Position numbers and translations under genes: made by a program. A DNA stretch of 64,000 nucleotides from Fistulifera solaris (taxonomy: Eukaryota): positions 1-64,000 of the forward strand of contig AP026145.1 of assembly GCA_030295235.1 (NCBI GenBank), given 5' to 3'. Position 1 is the stretch's first letter. Each line of letters starts with the position of its first letter. Positions 22,411 to 47,812 of this stretch are shown here, one piece after another. The notes beneath the pieces were generated by a model. It was not told the DNA's origin and made no database searches. It worked only from the letters and a program-made list of their open reading frames with translations.

Positions 22411-23200
22411 ATGAGCGTTCCGCAAACACAACGAAAACAGAGAAAAGGATTCCCAGCTTACTATTATTACATTGCTTTCGCTTTTGTTGGGTGTTGTGTG
22501 TTGCTGCGGACGGTCCAGAGAGGCAACCGTATGAATGCAAACAATCAAACGAGTGGCTTCCGTGATTTTAATGATGGTTCATTATCAATAAACGCAATGA
22601 AATACGCACAAATAGAACAGGGACAGCTTGATGGGAGAAACGAATCGTTTCTCAAATATAAAGTGATTCAATCGTCGACAGGAAATGATTTGTCGATGAA
22701 AGAATGGGCTGAAGCACTTCACAACGACTACGAATCCTTCAATACACTTCTGTCTTCCTGTCCCTTTGATGCTTTTTTTCTGGGAATGTGCTCCCACAAC
22801 CGATGGCTCGAATCGAATGGAATTTGTACTCGTCGATGCTCCATCACTAGCACAATTTGCACGGACTGCGCCCGATCGACACGCTTTTCGAGCACATTTT
22901 CCTTCCGAACATATCGAGGTTGCTATGTTTCCCAGTTTGGGGCAAGATGCTCACTTGTTGGCTCCAAATACACAATCAGCGCAACCTTTTACGGACCTTG
23001 CCTATTTTACTCGACATGCGAGTAATTTACAACAAAAGGCATTGTATCAGCGTCTCTCGCAATTGTTGCAAGAACAAATTTCCAAACCGGGGAGAAAGCC
23101 TCTCTGGTTGTCGACCTCCGGAATGGGAATTGCGTGGTTACATATTCGGATGGATTCCCGACCGAAGTACTACACTTACAAGCCCTATAAAGTATTGTAA
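22411..23200 (+). CDS. Conserved hypothetical protein (DUF6940-like) with an N-terminal TM segment; frameshift near 22780
   Basis: FDAFFWEC, FPSLGQDAHLLAP and LWLSTSGMGIAWLHIRMDSRPKYY motifs across ORFs 22402-23025 and 22766-23200. Confidence 0.65.
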
Positions 23201-23270: not shown

Positions 23271-24669
23271 TCAGTAACTCCGAGCGAGTTGCATGGAGCA
23301 AAAACGACACTGCCCTCTTCCCCCGCAGACTCGGAGTTTCTCAGCATCATCTCCACTGGTACATAGCGCTAAGCGATTGTTGTGTTCCATTCGGGCCCAC
23401 AGTTCGACTTCTTCGGGTGATTGGCCCAAAGGCATCGACGTTCCTCCGTATTCAGGCGGCAAGTGCTCCAGAGCGATTCGTTGTTGCATCGTTTGTCGAA
23501 TCTCCTCGGCTCCCCGAAGAATGTGAATCTTCTCCAGGGTGACTGGGTCCACCCAGGGCTTGACAACACTCCAGATCATTTTAAACCAGCTTGGAACGTT
23601 GATAATGTACACCGTCCCCGCTCGTTCGGGATAATGTTGATTGCAAAAGGCACTCGCGCGTTTGACGAAATCCATAACATCGCCCATGAAATCACCAAAA
23701 CGAATCCCTTGCAGATCGATAATATACAACGACTTGGCAGAGTCACTTCGTTCAACAATCTGCCATTGATATTCAACAATCATGGCATAATGCTGCAACA
23801 AGTCTTCTACCGAAACGCCGCCTTCGCGCAAGGCTTTCAAGTTTGTCTTGGCCGGTATCTCGTAAAAACAGGGTTCGTTGTTTTTACCCCGCATGTGAAA
23901 GTAATGCAAGTAATGTTGCTTAATCAAAGCGAAACGAGGATTCGGTCGGCGTAAAATGGTATCGATTCCCATTTCTTTTCGCCATTGCAGAGTAGCGCGA
24001 TATCGGCGCCAACCTTCGTCGACATTGCCTTTGCCGGCTCGCAAAAAGCGTTCGGGTAATTCCGAAGGAGGAGTTGGCGGTGGTAAGGGTGCTTGCCAGA
24101 TGGCCTGACATGACATCGGACGTTGACGAGGTGATAACGACGCCGATGATGTTGATGCAGTAGGCGCAAGCGACACTGTTTCCGTATGACCCCCACGTGG
24201 AATCATTTCGGTCGATCCTTCTTCGGAGCACGAATCGAATTCATCCACTGTTTTACCATTGCCGTATTCGTGAGCATCGTAAAAGTGGTCTCTACGCCAT
24301 TTCCTTCCGGATCCAATGTTCCTAGTACAATTCTTCCCTGATAGCAATGCCCCTTTTTCGGTTTTCGGAGAGCACGTGAGTTCTCGGACTGTAAAGATGA
24401 TGGGGGTACTAAAGGCTTGTTCTTGTTTGTCTTTTTGTTCTATCGTTGTTGTTTTGATTCATCGATTTGGGTGACTTGAGAAAGTGAATCGGTTCAAAGG
24501 AAAGAGCTGCGAGTAAATTATCGAGGCGATGTTTGTGTTTGCCTTTCTCGTTCGCAGTAAGAGATTCTGAATGATTTAGAAAGAGAAACATGTTGCTTTC
24601 TGCTCGAATAGATTGTTGTTTTATGAGAAATGGCAAAATCAACCAGAAAAAGAACCTTGTTGAGAGCAT
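23271..24669 (-). CDS. CRAL-TRIO (Sec14-like) lipid-binding protein
   Basis: RFLRA..TLQWRKE, IIDLQG, HYPERAG..YIINVPSWF..IWSVVKPWVDPVTLEKI, LPPEYGG; 5' end uncertain because of a frameshift near 24400. Confidence 0.88.
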
Positions 24670-25402: not shown

Positions 25403-28400
25403 TCAATCAGTTGAAGATTGACCACTATTTTCGGCTTCCTTCCACTCTTTAAACGTAGGATCATGATCGGCGGGAGTTTTCCACGCTTCTTCAAAAACTT
25501 CTCGTGGAAAAGATATTGCACTTTCTTCGACAGCCGTGGCGAACTCTGTCGCTACTTCACTTTCAATCGGAAAAACCACAGCATAATCAGTTTCGAAATT
25601 CACGATCCAACTAGTCCAGTGATTGGCAGCGAGTCGCTCTGCAAAGGTTCTTCCACTTTGTCCCATTTCAGGTGGAGCATTATCATCATTGTCAGTGACT
25701 TGCTCCAAACGCTCGTCGATAGCCAAATGTGCAAGGCGCAAAACGACCGCAACACACGCGGAATTCAGACACACCGCTACAAGTAGGAAAGTACTATCCC
25801 ACGAAACGGATGCATTGACTGAAAAGCAAGAATCGATCTGCGATTCACTTTGGTCTTCCAAAATCTTATGAAGAAAATCGCATCGGTCGCCAATTATGAA
25901 AGACGAAAATGTCGATATTTGCAGCAAAGCCGCCACAATGCTTAGCGCAAACACTTCGACAGCGCTCCATGCATTGGCGATCTCAGCCAGTGTAATCAAT
26001 GCGAGCTGGCCACGCGTAGTCATCGGGACCACAACAAAGGTAGCCAGGAATAAAAGAGTCGCGAAGGGTGTAAAAACAGCATAGAAGTAGTAAGCACACA
26101 ATAGAAGAAAAATGCCATTGCTGTCTGAGTTCTCCACACTGTTCGATAAGGATGAACCCAAGCTCAAAAGCGAGTACGATGTTCTGCGCTTTTCACCGAG
26201 AATCATCCCGCCAAGCCCCCCAAAAATCAAAATGGAAACATTTTCTTGCCATACCTAATCCCAATAAAAATAGCGTGAGCGTGATAGTTGACGCGACGCA
26301 AATGAAGAAATTCTGAGAGAGCCTGAGTTTGCGACCTTCAATAAAATATCGATGATTGATCAATGTCTCAGTCTCACTATTCGATGCTCCCTTACGAGAC
26401 AGCCGTACACGCCGGTGATAGTAGACCAGCAAGTGACCAGCAATTAGTGACAAAGCAGTTGCCAGCAAAAAACCGTAGAATCCAAAGAGCGGGGTAACGT
26501 AGACATCTAGAGCCAAGGATTCGTTCTGCTCGGGCGATAGATCCAAGTGGTAACGGAATGCGACGACGAAAAGGACCAGGACGTAAGTGTCGACCAAGGA
26601 GAATTTGCTTAGGGCGTCCAAAGCCAAAAGGAGCCGCTCGCGTCGTCTGACCGACAAAAAGCTTGTTTCCGCCACCCAAGATATGAGCATCAAAATCAAC
26701 TTGCAGTAAGGCCAAATGCCGCTAAACGCGATCACAAGAAAGAAAAGGGGATAGATTTTAGCGTGCAGCATTTCTTTAGCCGTATTGACCAAAGAGAATT
26801 CAAAGAGTGGCGGGATACGTATCGCTTCGTCACCAGATCTTATAACCAGATTCACTGCAGCTCCAACGTTCAAGTTGCTCAATACTAGCAAGACAGTTGT
26901 TGACAAAATAAGGACAGGCACAAAAACTCGGAAGAAATATGGAACATTCGCTGAATGCATTAAGCAAGTTCTGGGTAACGTTTCTAAAACAGGCAGCGCA
27001 TCCTCGCTTTGATCAAACATTATGGATGGGTCGTTGAGCAAAGGCTCCTCCAAAGCGGGTACGGTTTGTCGATGCAATGACCCTTCATATCTTGTTACTG
27101 GGGATGTCTTCAAAAGCAGCAGAACGGATTGTGCAAAAATCAAGACGGCGCCGATAACCAAAAATATTGAAGAATAGCTGATTGGTTCAACTTCATTGTC
27201 GTCGGAGTGATTCGGTGGTGGCGTTACACCTTCGCAAGAATAAGTGGCATGTGTGAGAAGCGATCTCGACGTACTTGCCAGCAAATCATTTGCAGATATA
27301 ACTGCCCAGTTGGAAAATTGAAAGATACTTTTCTGTACTTCCGGATAATCGTTCGAGTCGAGAGATAATATAAATGTTTGATTCCAGTTGGGACTTTGCA
27401 GAATGCCGCGCAGTTTAGTCTGGAATCGCCGAAAGGTACTATTCGTAGGGTCGAATGACATGGAGAGAGGCGTCAGTAAGCATTGATCGTGTTTCAAGAC
27501 GTGTGACAAACTGAGCCGTCGTAATTCGGAAAAATCGTACGACAGTGCGGACTTGAACAAAAGAAAGATGCCATCCAAACTGGTCTCCCAAACAATTGCA
27601 GCTGTAATGTTGAGCGGCGCAAAATGAAATTTCCAGCGGCGGTGACTAGCGGTTTGAAATCGGAATCGAAGGCTGAATCATACATTGTAGACGTGTTGAA
27701 ACGATGACCACCATCAGGGTCGAAAACCTGCATCTCTTGAAAGCGACCAAGATTATCAATCAGGAACGATTCCAGTTCAAACAACTTGAACTTCAAGGCT
27801 AATGGTGAACTACCCCAATGCAGCTCAACCACACGACTTATAAAGGTGCCGATGCAATCCACATACTGGTTCAAATCGCCAATAGTACGCGGTTGATTGA
27901 GAAAGTCATTGAGGTAAATCAAGTATTCGGTAATGTTGATGTCATCCCCAGCAATAAATGGTTCTGAATGTTTCGACGCATGCTGGCTTGACAAAATTTC
28001 ATCTACCGACGAAATTGTGTTATTCAAGAACTCGTTTAAAGCTTGTCTGGCAAAACCATTTATACTCGCCTTGACGATCGCTTGTACGAGTGGCTGGTAT
28101 TCGCTCAGGATGAGCTGAAATAGGTTGTTCAGTGCGCCATCCAGATCTTCTTCCAGCGTTCGTACCGACACCGATGAGTTGACATGAGGAATTATTAACA
28201 AGGATGATAGAATCATGTCAACATTCAGTTTCGAAGCCTCGAGACGATCCGCTCCATGAAGAAGGTCAACGAGAGATTGCCGTGTCCTTGTTTCGTTCTT
28301 CGCGAGAATTCCATGAATGAGGCCGATGATTGTGTCCATCGTCAACGCCTGAAAAACTAACGCTTGATAATCGAGTTCCAGATCCAATAGTACTTTCAAC

Positions 28401-29653
28401 GACTCCGCATGTAATTGCACAGAAAAAGACTCAATCAAATCATCTCCTTGAAATATTCCATCGGGTATCGTTTGAATGATTATTTTCATATCACACCGTA
28501 AAGTTGAATTCCGATTTTCCAGCGAAGAACTAATTGCGTTCCAGCTCTGGATTCTCAACAAATCCACAAGCTCCCAGTGCTCCAGTCCTGAAACAATGGA
28601 TAAGTTGTGCATTTGCAATTCGAGCTGTGCATAATGCGGCACGAGTATGGAGATATTTTGAAAGGGCAACGGGATCGTCACCCCGTTCGGTCGATGATTC
28701 ACAATGAGGGATTGCATGACCCCATTCCAACCTTCGAAACAGAAACCACAGGAAGACTCTTCCGTCTGATTATTCGGTAACCAGTGATGCGGTAACAGTC
28801 CTTCGTTTAAATGAGGTTGAATGAGTACATCATTGAGCCAATCCATCGAGTTCTTAAAGAATGGAACGTCCGTTTGTAAATTCATAAAGTTCGATTCCGT
28901 TGTTTGTATCGTTTCGTCCAATATTTGTCGGTTTGGTGCTACAAGTAGCGGTGAATTGACTGTGTCTTTGGATGTTAATGGCGACGACGGCGTCAAGATA
29001 CGATCGATCCACTCATTGACTTTCGATAGTTGCTGTGTCATCCACGGATCGACTTGTGTAGGAAACAAGGGACAAATTTGTTGCTGTATCGCGCCTGTCA
29101 CATAGTTGGATATTTGTTTCGCGAATAAGTTTACAATTTTGGCCGAAATACTTCCCGTAAATTGCAGATCGTCGAGTTGAATGTTGGTTTGACAATTTGT
29201 TGTATGTACTGCTCGAGGTCGCAGAATGGTAGAAATAGGTGTTGCTGTATCCGCCGATGACAAAATCTGCAACGCAATATCAATTGCATGATCCGAACTG
29301 TTGATTTGTGCATATATTTCTCCTGCAATGATACCTCCGGTCACTTGATACGATCCTTGACAAATCGTAGATACATTTTGTGCATTCCATTGAAGCGTAG
29401 AAGGCGCTGAATAAGAAGAAGGCAAGGACCCGACTGTAAAGTTAGTACAGTGCAAATGACTGATTTCGATTGAAACAAGACCGGAATGGAAAGATTGATC
29501 GGGAATGTTAACTTGCAAATGCCACAACCAACAAGCGAGAGGATCATAACGGCCGTTCGAAGAATGCCAGCATTCAGAGGGAAACTGCCATATTGTTTGC
29601 CCAACAGCGATGCGGTAGAATACAAAGAAGAGAACTACAAGAGAGGGCCGCAT
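25403..29653 (-). CDS. Signal-peptide protein with a TULIP/BPI-like ectodomain and two PqiA (paraquat-inducible A/LetA)-like membrane domains; frameshifts near 27560 and 26220
   Basis: ORFs 27494-29701, 26193-27578 and 25403-26230 overlap end to end; PqiA-like motifs FSGIWPYCKL, LSKFSLVDTYVLV and AWSAVEVFALSIVAALLQ. Confidence 0.7.
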
Positions 29654-29744
29654 TTTTGATAAAAAGTTAATGATGTTTATAGAGTCTTCTTTCCATTGCA
29701 TTGTATAGAGAGTGTTGAGATCTCTTTCGACTGCGATGTAAACT

Positions 29745-30244
29745 CAATATCCGGGTACCCCCTCTGTCGATAAATTTCCCTACGAGAGCTACGTGAAATT
29801 ACGTAGACATTCGAAGCGTGGCATCATTCGTTCCATCGACGTTCTGTTTTCAAATCGACGGCGAATATTGCTTAGTTATACGAAGCAAATACGGTGGGCA
29901 AGGAAACGTTGACATTTGCGCACTGTAGATCGAAGAAATGGATGACGGCGTAAAAATGCAATCTCCGGGTACCCCTGCAGAGATAAATTTCCTACGGCGG
30001 CTACGTAAAATACGCGTAGACACTAGACGCGTTGTATCATTGTACTGTTTCATGTTTCACTGTCAAATCAAAGTCGATTATTGTTTCATGGCTCGCATTA
30101 GCGATGTTGGTCAAAGCATTGTTGACATTAATGTCCAAAAGACGCGTTTAACGGTGTGATCGAATTAACACAATATCCGGGTACCCCCTCTGTCGATAAA
30201 TTTCCCTACGAGAGCTACGTGAAATCACGTAGACATTCGAAGCC
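29745..30244. repeat. Dispersed, diverged copy (A-B-A cores) of the 437-bp repeat family at 45.3-47.8 kb
   Basis: aatatccgggtacccc..gataaatttcc..ctacg..agctacgt..acgtagaca cores near 29746, 29960 and 30172. Confidence 0.9.
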
Positions 30245-32234: not shown

Positions 32235-32689
32235 GTTGAAAGTGTTAATATGATTAATTCAATGCTTGATTGTTTGTGCTTGTTGTAATGATTGCTTGTC
32301 GATGAAGAACAAGAAGAAGTCGGGATCCTTTTGATTTTGGCCGTTTTCTTTCAAAGAATTTCGCAACGTCACTTTGCGCGCGTGACGGTCAAGTTGTTTA
32401 GGTGACATGCCGCGCCGTCAAGACCACAAGACTACACTTCGATTCATATTAATACTCTTACTGTACGAAGAATGGTAAAGTTTCAGTCACACGAAGCGTC
32501 CAATCAAAATCATCGATAACAAGTCTCGTCCGTGCGTCGCTCGATAGCTGTGTTGCGCTCCTTCCATCTCCACCCATGCCACAAGAAGTTTTCTAACTCA
32601 ATCACTGAAAACATCCTTTTTCGTCTATTCTAGCAGTCCATCTCTTTTATACTCTATCTGATCTATTCTATACTCTTAGTGAAGTCAAA

Positions 32690-34559
32690 ATGGCGGAACA
32701 AGTGCAAGCGACGCTCGACCAGATGGTCGAACCATTGCAAGATTTGCAGCAAAGAAACGTCTTCACTCCGGCGGAAATTCATGCGATTGTCGAGAGACGA
32801 CGCGATTACGAGTACATGTTGCGTCGACGTAATGTGCGTAAAGTCGATTGCTTGAAGTACGTTGATGATGAGGTTAAATTAGAGCAGTTACGGGAGTTGC
32901 GTATACGAAAAATTCAACGGGAAGCGCGTGAAGCTCTACAGAAACTGCCTCGCGAGGAACGTGAAAAGCAAGCCCAGAAAATGATCAAGAAACATATTGG
33001 CGATCGACATGTCTTGCAACACATCCATTCATTATGGACAAGGATCTTTCGGAAATTTCGTGCCGATCAAGATCTTTATTTGCAGTATGCAGATTTTTTG
33101 AAACAACAGGGTGCACACGGCAAGCTATCTCAACTTTACGCAAGTGTGTTGGCGATTTTCCCACGAGAGTCCGCCTGGTGGATCCGAGCAGCCTCGCATG
33201 AGTTTTTTACAAACAACAATGTACAAGCGGCTCGAGTCATGCTACAAAGAGGTATCCGTGTTAACCCGAAATCAAATGATTTGTGGGTACAATCGTTCGT
33301 CCTCGAACTACACTTTGTTCAGAAAATTCATGGGCGTCGTCAATTGCTAGAGCTGCCAAAAGCTTCGAAAGAAGATGACGACATTTATAAATTAGCGCGA
33401 TTAGTGCATGATAACGCGATTCTTTCAGCGGAGGACGATGGAGCGGTGGGTCTCTTGATGTGGCAGCATTGTGAGTATTTTCCGCACACGAACGAATTGC
33501 AACAGCACATTTTGCAAGCTCTGCGAAAACGGTGCAGTGATAAACCACAAGCATGGATCGCCATGGCGCGATGCAGTCTGCAGTCGCCAAGTCAGAGCTT
33601 AGAACAGAACGAAACGAACGATGACGACAATGAGGAAGACGGAAATTCGAGTGAAAGTGATCATGACGAGGAAAATGTTGAGATACCATTACCGCCGCCG
33701 AAGAAAAAGCAGAAGCTAGAAGCAAAGAAAGAATCTGTTCTTGTGATTTTGAATGAAGCTATTCAAAGCATTCCCACCAGTGAGATGTATGTAGAATCTG
33801 TTCGCTTCTTACGAGGTATTCCTATGACGGAAAGTCGGCGAAAACTTATTGAAAAGATTTTCGCAAACGCTAGTGCACAAGATAAAGTCACAGTCGAGTT
33901 ACTGCTGGAGCATGTTGACTTTTTTAGAAGGAAGCGATCAAACAAAGCAGGCGCTGAAAAAGTTGCGCAAGTATACCGCGAACAATAAAGTTTCGGACGC
34001 GCGAGTTTGGACCCGATGGGCGAAAATTGTGTTTCCAAACCCGGAAGCCGCGACAGTTTTATCCAAAGCATTAAAAGTAATTCCCATGGCCTCGTCGGAT
34101 CACTACATGACCGTATTGTTACAACTGTTGGGGACAATGATGGCGTTAAAGCGTCACAATGACTACTGGGCGCTGTGGGAACAAGTCCTCTTGTTGGCGC
34201 CGGGATGCCAAGGCCTGGTTGATGACGCGACTTTATTTGGCATCAAAAGCATTGCTGATGGATGTTTGCAGTTCTTGACACATATTTCATCTTTGAAGTT
34301 GCTGTCAGATGTTCGGAAAATATACGAGGCCGTGTTATTTCAATCTTCCATGATGGATAGAATGGACGAGTCTAACGCCCATTTGTTCAAGTCTTTCGTC
34401 GAAACGGCCATCGAACACGAACGTTTGGGCTCCGACGACAATTCCAGTAAGAAACAACGTATCTCTCGCATCTTGGACGTTGCGTTGAGAAAGTTTCAGA
34501 ACTTTGTCGACCTTGCCGATGACCTTCGACAAAAGCGAGAAGATGCACTTTATGGGTAA
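32690..34559 (+). CDS. UTP6: U3 snoRNA-associated protein 6 (HAT repeats); frameshift near 33925
   Basis: MAEQVQATLDQMVEPLQDL..VFTPAEIHAIVERRRDYEYML; WIRAASHEF..NNVQAARVMLQRGIRVNP. Confidence 0.9.
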
Positions 34560-45319: not shown

Positions 45320-47812
45320 AAGACATTCGAAGCGTTGCATCATTCGTTCCTTTAGCGTTTTTCTTGCTTTCACAGTCGATTATTGTTTCATAGTCCCCAT
45401 AAGCGATGTTGGACAAAGCATTGCTGACATTGGTGTCCAAAAGACGCGGAAAGTGGTGTGATCGAAATTACACAATATCCGGGTTTCCCCTCTGTCGATA
45501 AATTTCCCTACGAGAGCTACGTAAAAATACGTAGACATTCGAAGCCTTGCATGATTCGTTCCGTCAGCGTTTTGTTTTCATATCGATGCCGAATATAGCC
45601 TAGCGATACGAAAACAATACGGTGCGCAACCCAACGTTGACATCTGTGCACTGGAAAAGCCCAGAATATTTGATGTTGGTAAAGGTGTAATATCCGGGTA
45701 CCCCGGCAGAGATAAATTTCCCACGGCGGCTACGTACAATGCGCGTAGACATTGGGAGCGTTGTATTTTCCTACTGTTTCGCGTTTTTCTGTCAAAGCAA
45801 AGACGATTACTGTTCCTTACTGTTCCTTGTCTCGCGTTTGTGACGTTGGGCAAAGCATTGCTGACATTGGTGTCCAAAAGACGCGGAAAGTGGTGTGATC
45901 GAAATTACACAATATCCGGGTTTCCCCTCTGTCGATAAATTTCCCTACGAGAGCTACGTAAAAATACGTAGACATTCGAAGCCTTGCATGATTCGTTCCG
46001 TCAGCGTTTTGTTTTCATATCGATGCCGAATATAGCCTAGCGATACGAAAACAATACGGTGCGCAACCCAACGTTGACATCTGTGCACTGGAAAAGCCCA
46101 GAATATTTGATGTTGGTAAAGGTGTAATATCCGGGTACCCCGGCAGAGATAAATTTCCCACGGCGGCTACGTACAATGCGCGTAGACATTGGGAGCGTTG
46201 TATTTTCCTACTGTTTCGCGTTTTTCTGTCAAAGCAAAGACGATTACTGTTCCTTACTGTTCCTTGTCTCGCGTTTGTGACGTTGGGCAAAGCATTGCTG
46301 ACATTGGTGTCCAAAAGACGCGGAAAGTGGTGTGATCGAAATTACACAATATCCGGGTTTCCCCTCTGTCGATAAATTTCCCTACGAGAGCTACGTAAAA
46401 ATACGTAGACATTCGAAGCCTTGCATGATTCGTTCCGTCAGCGTTTTGTTTTCATATCGATGCCGAATATAGCCTAGCGATACGAAAACAATACGGTGCG
46501 CAACCCAACGTTGACATCTGTGCACTGGAAAAGCCCAGAATATTTGATGTTGGTAAAGGTGTAATATCCGGGTACCCCGGCAGAGATAAATTTCCCACGG
46601 CGGCTACGTACAATGCGCGTAGACATTGGGAGCGTTGTATTTTCCTACTGTTTCGCGTTTTTCTGTCAAAGCAAAGACGATTACTGTTCCTTACTGTTCC
46701 TTGTCTCGCGTTTGTGACGTTGGGCAAAGCATTGCTGACATTGGTGTCCAAAAGACGCGGAAAGTGGTGTGATCGAAATTACACAATATCCGGGTTTCCC
46801 CTCTGTCGATAAATTTCCCTACGAGAGCTACGTAAAAATACGTAGACATTCGAAGCCTTGCATGATTCGTTCCGTCAGCGTTTTGTTTTCATATCGATGC
46901 CGAATATAGCCTAGCGATACGAAAACAATACGGTGCGCAACCCAACGTTGACATCTGTGCACTGGAAAAGCCCAGAATATTTGATGTTGGTAAAGGTGTA
47001 ATATCCGGGTACCCCGGCAGAGATAAATTTCCCACGGCGGCTACGTACAATGCGCGTAGACATTGGGAGCGTTGTATTTTCCTACTGTTTCGCGTTTTTC
47101 TGTCAAAGCAAAGACGATTACTGTTCCTTACTGTTCCTTGTCTCGCGTTTGTGACGTTGGGCAAAGCATTGCTGACATTGATTGGTGTCCAAAAGACGCG
47201 GAAAGTGGTGTGATCGGAATTACACAATATCCGGGTTTCCCCTCTGTCTATAAATTTCCCCACGAGAGCTACGTGAGTGAGTTTACGTTAGACATGTGAC
47301 TCCCTCTAAAATTCTGTGGCAGTGAAGTGACTTCCAAGGCAAGCTCTCGGCAGTGAAGTGGAAGTGAAATCACTCCCGTGTCGCACTGAGTCTAGTATGT
47401 GCTAAACTGTACTCTTGTCAGTCACTTACTCTAGGGACTGCCTCAAGTGCACTAGGGTTTTGACTTCCCACGTAGCTTTACGTAGGTGTAGTACCTGGCA
47501 GTGAACCCTTTTGGCTTGGAAGTGAAGTGAAGTGGAAGTGAAATTTCCTCACGGCAGTGAAGTGGACGTCAGCAGTGCAGAAGTCACATGTCTAGTTTAC
47601 GTAGACGCAATATCCGGGTACCGCTACTGAGATAAATTCCCACGGTGGCTACGTCAAATACGCGTAGACACTTGAAGCGCTTTATCTTCTACTGTTTCAT
47701 GTTTCATCGTTAAAAATAAAATTCGGTTATTGTTTTATGGCTTACGTCAGTGATGTTGGGCAAAGTATCTGTGACATTTGGTTTCCAAAAGACGCGACAA
47801 ACGGTGTGATCC
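45320..47812. repeat. Tandem array of a 437-bp unit (4 apparently identical copies plus diverged flanks), each made of two related ~215/222-bp subunits
   Basis: caaagcattgctgac recurs at 45414, 45851, 46288, 46725 and 47162; the same spurious 99-aa ORF recurs every 437 bp. Confidence 0.97.
47289..47594. mobile_element. 306-bp non-autonomous hAT-type DNA transposon (MITE)
   Basis: 13-bp TIRs tagacatgtgact / agtcacatgtcta; 8-bp target-site duplication gtttacgt at 47281-47288 and 47595-47602; internal CAGTGAAGTG(G)AAGTG subterminal repeats. Confidence 0.88.

Follow-up and report, generated by a model that had tools for sequence, protein, structure and literature searches.

A Fistulifera solaris protein with TULIP/BPI-like domains and a LetA-like PqiA pair in a single polypeptide

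We describe a gene in a 64,000-nt stretch of DNA from the diatom Fistulifera solaris (contig AP026145.1, positions 1 to 64,000; hereafter the window), which is the start of contig C21 in a 51.7-Mb genome. A single intronless coding sequence at 25403..29653 on the minus strand, the strand of all protein features below, encodes 1416 aa when two indels in the window are discounted, and corresponds to FisN_7Hh008 (GAX20699.1). Profile, fold and single-transcript evidence support the presence of TULIP/BPI-like domains and PqiA modules in this one polypeptide. A sequence-only reading of the window had proposed this fusion, with TULIP repeats standing in for the MCE tunnel of bacterial LetA-type transporters, and the same evidence upholds it. 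It had also suspected that eukaryotic PqiA-like proteins were already on record, and rightly so. The TUPAL class, TULIP plus PqiA in one chain, is named in a recent preprint that gives it one or two BPI-like domains (Guillen-Samander et al., bioRxiv 10.64898/2026.09.11.750981), and the fusion of TULIP and PqiA is therefore not new. The protein stands out as a variant by its three-domain ectodomain, the position of a polar residue network and a sorting motif. Very probably it functions in some form of lipid transport at a membrane of the secretory pathway. The more specific reading, a TUPAL-class diatom protein with three lumenal TULIP domains that serves lipid exit from the vacuole or late endosome, we regard as evenly balanced.

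In the window the gene appears as three overlapping minus-strand open reading frames (ORFs), ORF1 (27494-29743), ORF2 (26193-27677) and ORF3 (25403-26254), which together contain all of its parts. Their amino acids are identical to those of the 1416-aa GenBank protein FisN_7Hh008 of F. solaris except at two indel points. At 27621..27624 a run of A is one base short, contigs from two public sequencing runs (X1 and X2) having one additional A behind 27620; at 26222..26226 a run of A is one base too long, the same contigs lacking a base at 26222. These contigs are almost identical to the window at the gene, and X1 or X2 may be related to the source of the window, yet both are free of its two errors. 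Since X1 and X2 correct both frameshifts, the indels lie in homopolymers and the GenBank protein is intact, the frameshifts, which had been correctly seen in the window, are single-base homopolymer assembly errors. Introns with candidate GT-AG pairs were considered as the cause of the frame changes and dropped, as the X1 and X2 reads gave single-base indels. Among the sequencing runs none is recorded as RNA; X2 is probably DNA, since its depth over the repeat upstream of the gene is ~10,000-fold, as in the DNA run. The two frameshifts might also suggest that the window copy is a true pseudogene or two to three separate genes, but we find this hardly credible: the indels fall in homopolymer runs and are missing from X1 and X2, the GenBank entry encodes an unbroken protein without other differences, and the homoeolog FisN_7Lh008, a collinear copy on contig C22 (~87% identical), is one open frame of 1422 codons. 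The earlier proposal also depended on the ectodomain and the membrane part sharing a transcript. They lie in one ORF in complete transcript-derived relatives, namely P0031 and P0099, the latter clustering with a Corethron pennatum record.

The protein begins with a predicted signal peptide, residues 1-18 (29600..29653). The sequence-only reading had listed it, and it can be made out by eye, with hydrophobic windows at the N terminus of 17 of 36 homologs; for this protein the hydrophobic-window scan, no dedicated predictor being used, did not flag it. The ectodomain that follows is ~810 aa long, not the roughly 850 aa first estimated. Its first domain, D1 (residues 36-225; 28979..29548), is a BPI N-terminal-type TULIP domain with a Cys154/Cys194 pair. 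The D1 family profile matches residues 25-193 of human BPI (1bp1) with an E value of 2.2e-9, and its alignment to BPI-N includes the cysteine pair. Residues 154-195 (29194-29069) agree with the BPI-like signature reported earlier in every letter. At E ≤ 0.1, 29 of 34 members have Pfam LBP_BPI_CETP over D1; on ORF1 the match, with an E value of 4.8e-4, does not reach the curated cut-off. D2 (residues 255-560; 27974..28891) is a TULIP domain with a predicted fold like that of the takeout/JHBP proteins, and contains the only CxxC of the protein, at residue 302 on the lumenal side. D3 (residues 570-815; 27210..27946) is probably a third TULIP domain, as judged from its hhalign match to D2 (96.4%, E 1.1e-9, 172 columns) and from the same order of secondary-structure elements in the predicted model. 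The further ectodomain blocks that had been noted beyond the BPI signature are present, and D2 and D3 are homologous to each other. The Atlas leads for D3 were Grp7 allergen, JHBP and LBP_BPI_CETP, at 0.81-0.86 and all <0.9. Profile homology of D1 to D2 or D3 was not detected (6.6% and 0.9%, respectively), and a two-domain fit to CETP/BPI was poor (root-mean-square deviation 19-22). A single-sequence fold of ORF1 had a predicted local distance difference test score (pLDDT) of 35 and was left unused; a predicted complex between D3 and the PqiA tandem, run without alignments, scored 0.00, which speaks neither for nor against it. In contrast to the BPI/LBP/CETP and takeout/JHBP proteins, the F. 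solaris protein is a membrane-anchored chain of three.

The ectodomain is followed by an extra transmembrane helix (residues 830-848; 27111..27167), a linker of ~50 residues, eight hydrophobic windows (residues 907-1307) and a 100-residue tail. The extra helix is the strongest hydrophobic window of the protein (2.81) and has an equivalent in homologs; it and the cytosolic linker had gone unmentioned before. The helix is predicted to leave the ectodomain lumenal and to let the PqiA part begin on the cytosolic side. The distribution of N-glycosylation sequons fits a lumenal ectodomain, with 16 there, two in lumenal loops and none in the linker or tail. Across 47 full-length relatives, the ratio of sequons in real to shuffled sequences is 1.85 for the ectodomain, 1.3 for the short cytosolic linkers and 0.93 for the tail. 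The linker, predicted to be disordered (pLDDT <50), carries the dileucine-like motif LEEPLL at residues 868-873 (27036..27053). Linkers could be defined in 118 of 172 proteins. Among those of three-domain type, PL[LI] occurs in 54 of 79 versus 4.9 by shuffling, and LxxxL[LI] in 44 of 79 versus 6.1; more distant linkers contain PL[LI] in 10 of 39 cases versus 1.5. The motif is similar to EGTPLL and EASPLL, vacuolar motifs of diatoms (PMC11085791, which cites Schreiber 2017) and the plant tonoplast signal LXXXLL (PMC3355574). The cytosolic C-terminal tail (residues 1316-1416; 25406..25708) is variable; it holds, near the C-terminus (25406-25480), a [DN]PxWxxW motif that 15 of the 47 full-length relatives share, and a WRxWF-like tail ends another subgroup of them.

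PqiA module 1 (residues 901-1084; 26403..26954) consists of four transmembrane helices with a lumenal beta sheet. Module 2 (residues 1111-1315; 25709..26324) contains the WSAVEVF motif and a conserved lumenal pair, Cys1258/Cys1276. Pfam PqiA matches ORF2 with an E value of 4.1e-4 and ORF3 with 2.7e-5, and the intact protein P0001 exceeds the cut-off (29.7 versus 23.8 bits). The best fold match of this part is LetA. Two PqiA-type motifs had been predicted and both exist, AWSAVEVF as described and KFSLVDTY with T where V had been given; they align with the LetA cleft motif of GRWSM-x-D-x-F type. The LetA polar network S321, K328, S364, D367 and T402 corresponds here to S978, K985, S1019, D1022 and S1069 (or, for the last, T1066). 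These residues are in module 1, whereas in E. coli LetA the polar set is in the second module; module 2 here is without the Ser/Lys pair. A swap of modules relative to LetA was suggested by two E. coli sequences, but 26 bacterial sequences kept from 78 did not uphold it. First modules were closer to the bacterial C module in 80 of 121 cases and second modules to the N module in 54 of 99, while the two modules of this protein prefer the opposite bacterial modules to that majority. In a quick tree, which covered 25 of 95 eukaryotic proteins and mostly gammaproteobacteria on the bacterial side and whose thorough search was incomplete, the two eukaryotic modules group together (Shimodaira-Hasegawa-like approximate likelihood ratio test support 95). 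Our claim is limited to the position of the polar residues and does not extend to a module swap. E. coli LetA (YebS) and PqiA work with the separate MCE tunnel partners LetB and PqiB, whereas here a TULIP chain is fused to the transporter.

Among described proteins, the TUPAL type with two N-terminal BPI domains is the most similar. It likewise has N-terminal BPI-like TULIP domains, two PqiA modules of four transmembrane helices and a TULIP part on the non-cytosolic side whose first domain is closest to the human BPI N-terminal domain, but it has one or two TULIP domains where we find three TULIP-like blocks. The main text of that preprint does not mention diatoms, although its InterPro-wide survey may include this protein. 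PfTUPA of Plasmodium falciparum (PF3D7_0214800), compared by description only, shares the PqiA tandem and an extra transmembrane helix joined to a lumenal TULIP; this is a single C-terminal ApiTULIP, in contrast to the three N-terminal domains behind a signal peptide here. BPI proteins of protists with a C-terminal PqiA anchor were already mentioned by Wong and Levine in 2017 (PMC5507252). Literature searches, which left subscription journals mostly uncovered, found no report of diatom members.

We propose the following mechanism. The protein would enter the secretory pathway, and its LxEPLL linker motif would sort it to the vacuolar or late-endosomal membrane. The TULIP chain would take up glycerolipids or their breakdown products from lumenal membranes and lipid droplets and release them into the lumenal leaflet beside the extra helix, from where the PqiA pair, by way of module 1's polar network, would pass them on to the cytosolic leaflet to be used again. 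Location, cargo, direction and the hand-over between domains are what we infer here. The model borrows from PfTUPA, without which membranes accumulate until they fill the digestive vacuole and for which simulations show lipid delivery and flipping (bioRxiv 10.64898/2026.09.11.750981), and it fits the degradation of F. solaris lipid droplets at the vacuole by lipophagy (PMC12227789).

A number of observations weigh against this reading. The TULIP of PfTUPA is C-terminal and different in kind, so its function may not carry over. D3 alone had no single-domain fold match to a solved TULIP in the large model. The extra helix is helical in the model but has a pLDDT <50. The predicted template modelling score is 0.55 and relative domain placement is not fixed; of the one-protein lipid conduit first suggested, the single chain stands and the continuous conduit stays conjectural. 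At the position of LetA K178 we find E in 54 of 99, Q in 44 and K in one, and at that of D181 T in 54 of 99 and Q in 32; the LetA-type cytoplasmic zinc ribbons (two CxxC pairs) are missing. The LetA mechanism can thus not be copied in full. LetA-like proteins without zinc ribbons are described from parasites and marine protists (PMC13017536). The linker counts come from related sequences, which are not independent. PL[LI] is missing in 25 of 79 three-domain-type linkers, and the strict form [DE]xxxL[LI], the one named for diatoms (PMC9964374), is not enriched among them (12 of 79 versus 13.3 expected). In the homoeolog FisN_7Lh008 the motif reads PLF instead of PLL, and the two copies might sort differently.

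The 2017 review also calls BPI-PqiA proteins of protists plasma-membrane anchored (PMC5507252). A transporter at the plasma membrane or recycling endosome, whose outward-facing TULIP chain either scavenges lipids from outside the cell (those of bacteria, sterols, pigments) or delivers lipids outward to the wall coat and whose dileucine motif drives endocytosis, would agree with that statement, with the similarity of D1 to secreted BPI/LBP and with the signs of heavy glycosylation. We consider it unlikely, as the relevant passage of the review gives no localisation data, the only studied member is vacuolar and the linker motif resembles diatom and plant tonoplast signals. The sequence-only reading had thought of a bridge at complex-plastid or secretory membranes. 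As a lumenal bridge from chloroplast endoplasmic reticulum (ER) to periplastid membrane, replacing the MCE tunnel, the protein would have a compatible topology, its ectodomain lying in a lumen of ER type; every three-domain relative with a named organism is a diatom, and bacterial LetA acts between two membranes (PMC13017536). This location finds no support and is quite unlikely in our view. Relatives sharing both the membrane part and the TULIP blocks occur in plastid-less Pigoraptor and Balamuthia, the studied member is in a digestive vacuole, and a conserved post-Golgi-type sorting motif of vacuolar kind is not expected for a plastid-ER resident. Import into these plastids requires, as a rule, an aromatic residue after the signal peptide; the residue after the presumed cleavage site is Q, which does not exclude the outermost membrane. 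We give a similarly low probability to a role in supplying or retrieving lipids at some other acidic compartment that only diatoms have, such as the silica deposition vesicle, with a three-domain length matched to its lumen. Among relatives with an assigned organism the three-domain form occurs in diatoms only, and the presence in one genome of several paralogs that differ in ectodomain length hints at different compartments, but the restriction to diatoms may not hold beyond these relatives. It is very unlikely that the TULIP domains merely bind ligands or act as spacer or sensor, with the PqiA pair as a tetraspanin/claudin-like scaffold that transports nothing.

The route by which lipids get out of the vacuole after autophagy or lipophagy is an open question for algae, among which F. 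solaris serves as a model oil producer. The gene is a definite candidate for this route: LL872-873, K985 and D1022 are residues that can be tested, and its natural variants in length might tell whether TULIP arrays work as shuttles or as bridges. PqiA loci occur several times in the genome; those on C3/C4 have longer ectodomains of multiple blocks, and those on C25/C26 and C40/C41 have no detected TULIP block. We suggest, as a doubtful extension, that diatoms run a graded TUPAL set (none, two to three and about five TULIP domains in this genome) whose end-to-end arrays would be length-tuned lumenal bridges, the three-domain form being the tonoplast exit for lipids that lipophagy sets free in this oleaginous diatom; a duplication within eukaryotes would have given rise to the transporter and left the lipid-flipping network in module 1, the mirror image of LetA, without zinc ribbons.

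The TULIP-PqiA paralogs of other ectodomain lengths are L012-L015 and L018 (C3, C4, C21:102 kb, C22:98 kb and C55), several of them split into more than one frame by either introns or assembly indels. The PqiA genes without a detected TULIP block, with ORFs of 333/316 codons (L016/L017; C25, C26) and 665/689 codons (L019/L020; C40, C41), are possibly partners of free TULIP proteins or of the stramenopile beta-sheet-extension type. Four relatives of 1700-2270 aa (P0101 from the amoeba Balamuthia, P0102, P0137 and P0148) have long TULIP arrays, which in some consist of repeated D1-D2 units. Among 30 clusters looked up, none named an ortholog from Phaeodactylum or Thalassiosira, which does not imply absence, and a second homolog search, with A2, gave no new relatives.

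The window begins at the telomere, with 89.5 copies of TAACCC and a 212-base subtelomeric duplication at 1-936, and the gene lies 25 kb from the chromosome end. The neighbours scanned comprise a CRAL-TRIO (Sec14-like) lipid-binding protein as the next gene downstream (23271-24458, minus strand; Pfam E 2e-30), a DUF6940 gene (22700-23200, plus; E 3e-43), a UTP6-like HAT-repeat gene (32609-33988, plus; E 4e-19) and two ORFs without assignment. A high-copy repeat with units ~213 bases apart begins ~90 bases upstream of the start codon (29740-30243), and at 45408-47274 there is a 437-base tandem array, of 4.3 copies, from the same family. The summed contig depth of the repeat is ~9,000-10,000, versus 9-57 over the gene, and the C22 copy of the gene has only a short remnant of the upstream repeat.
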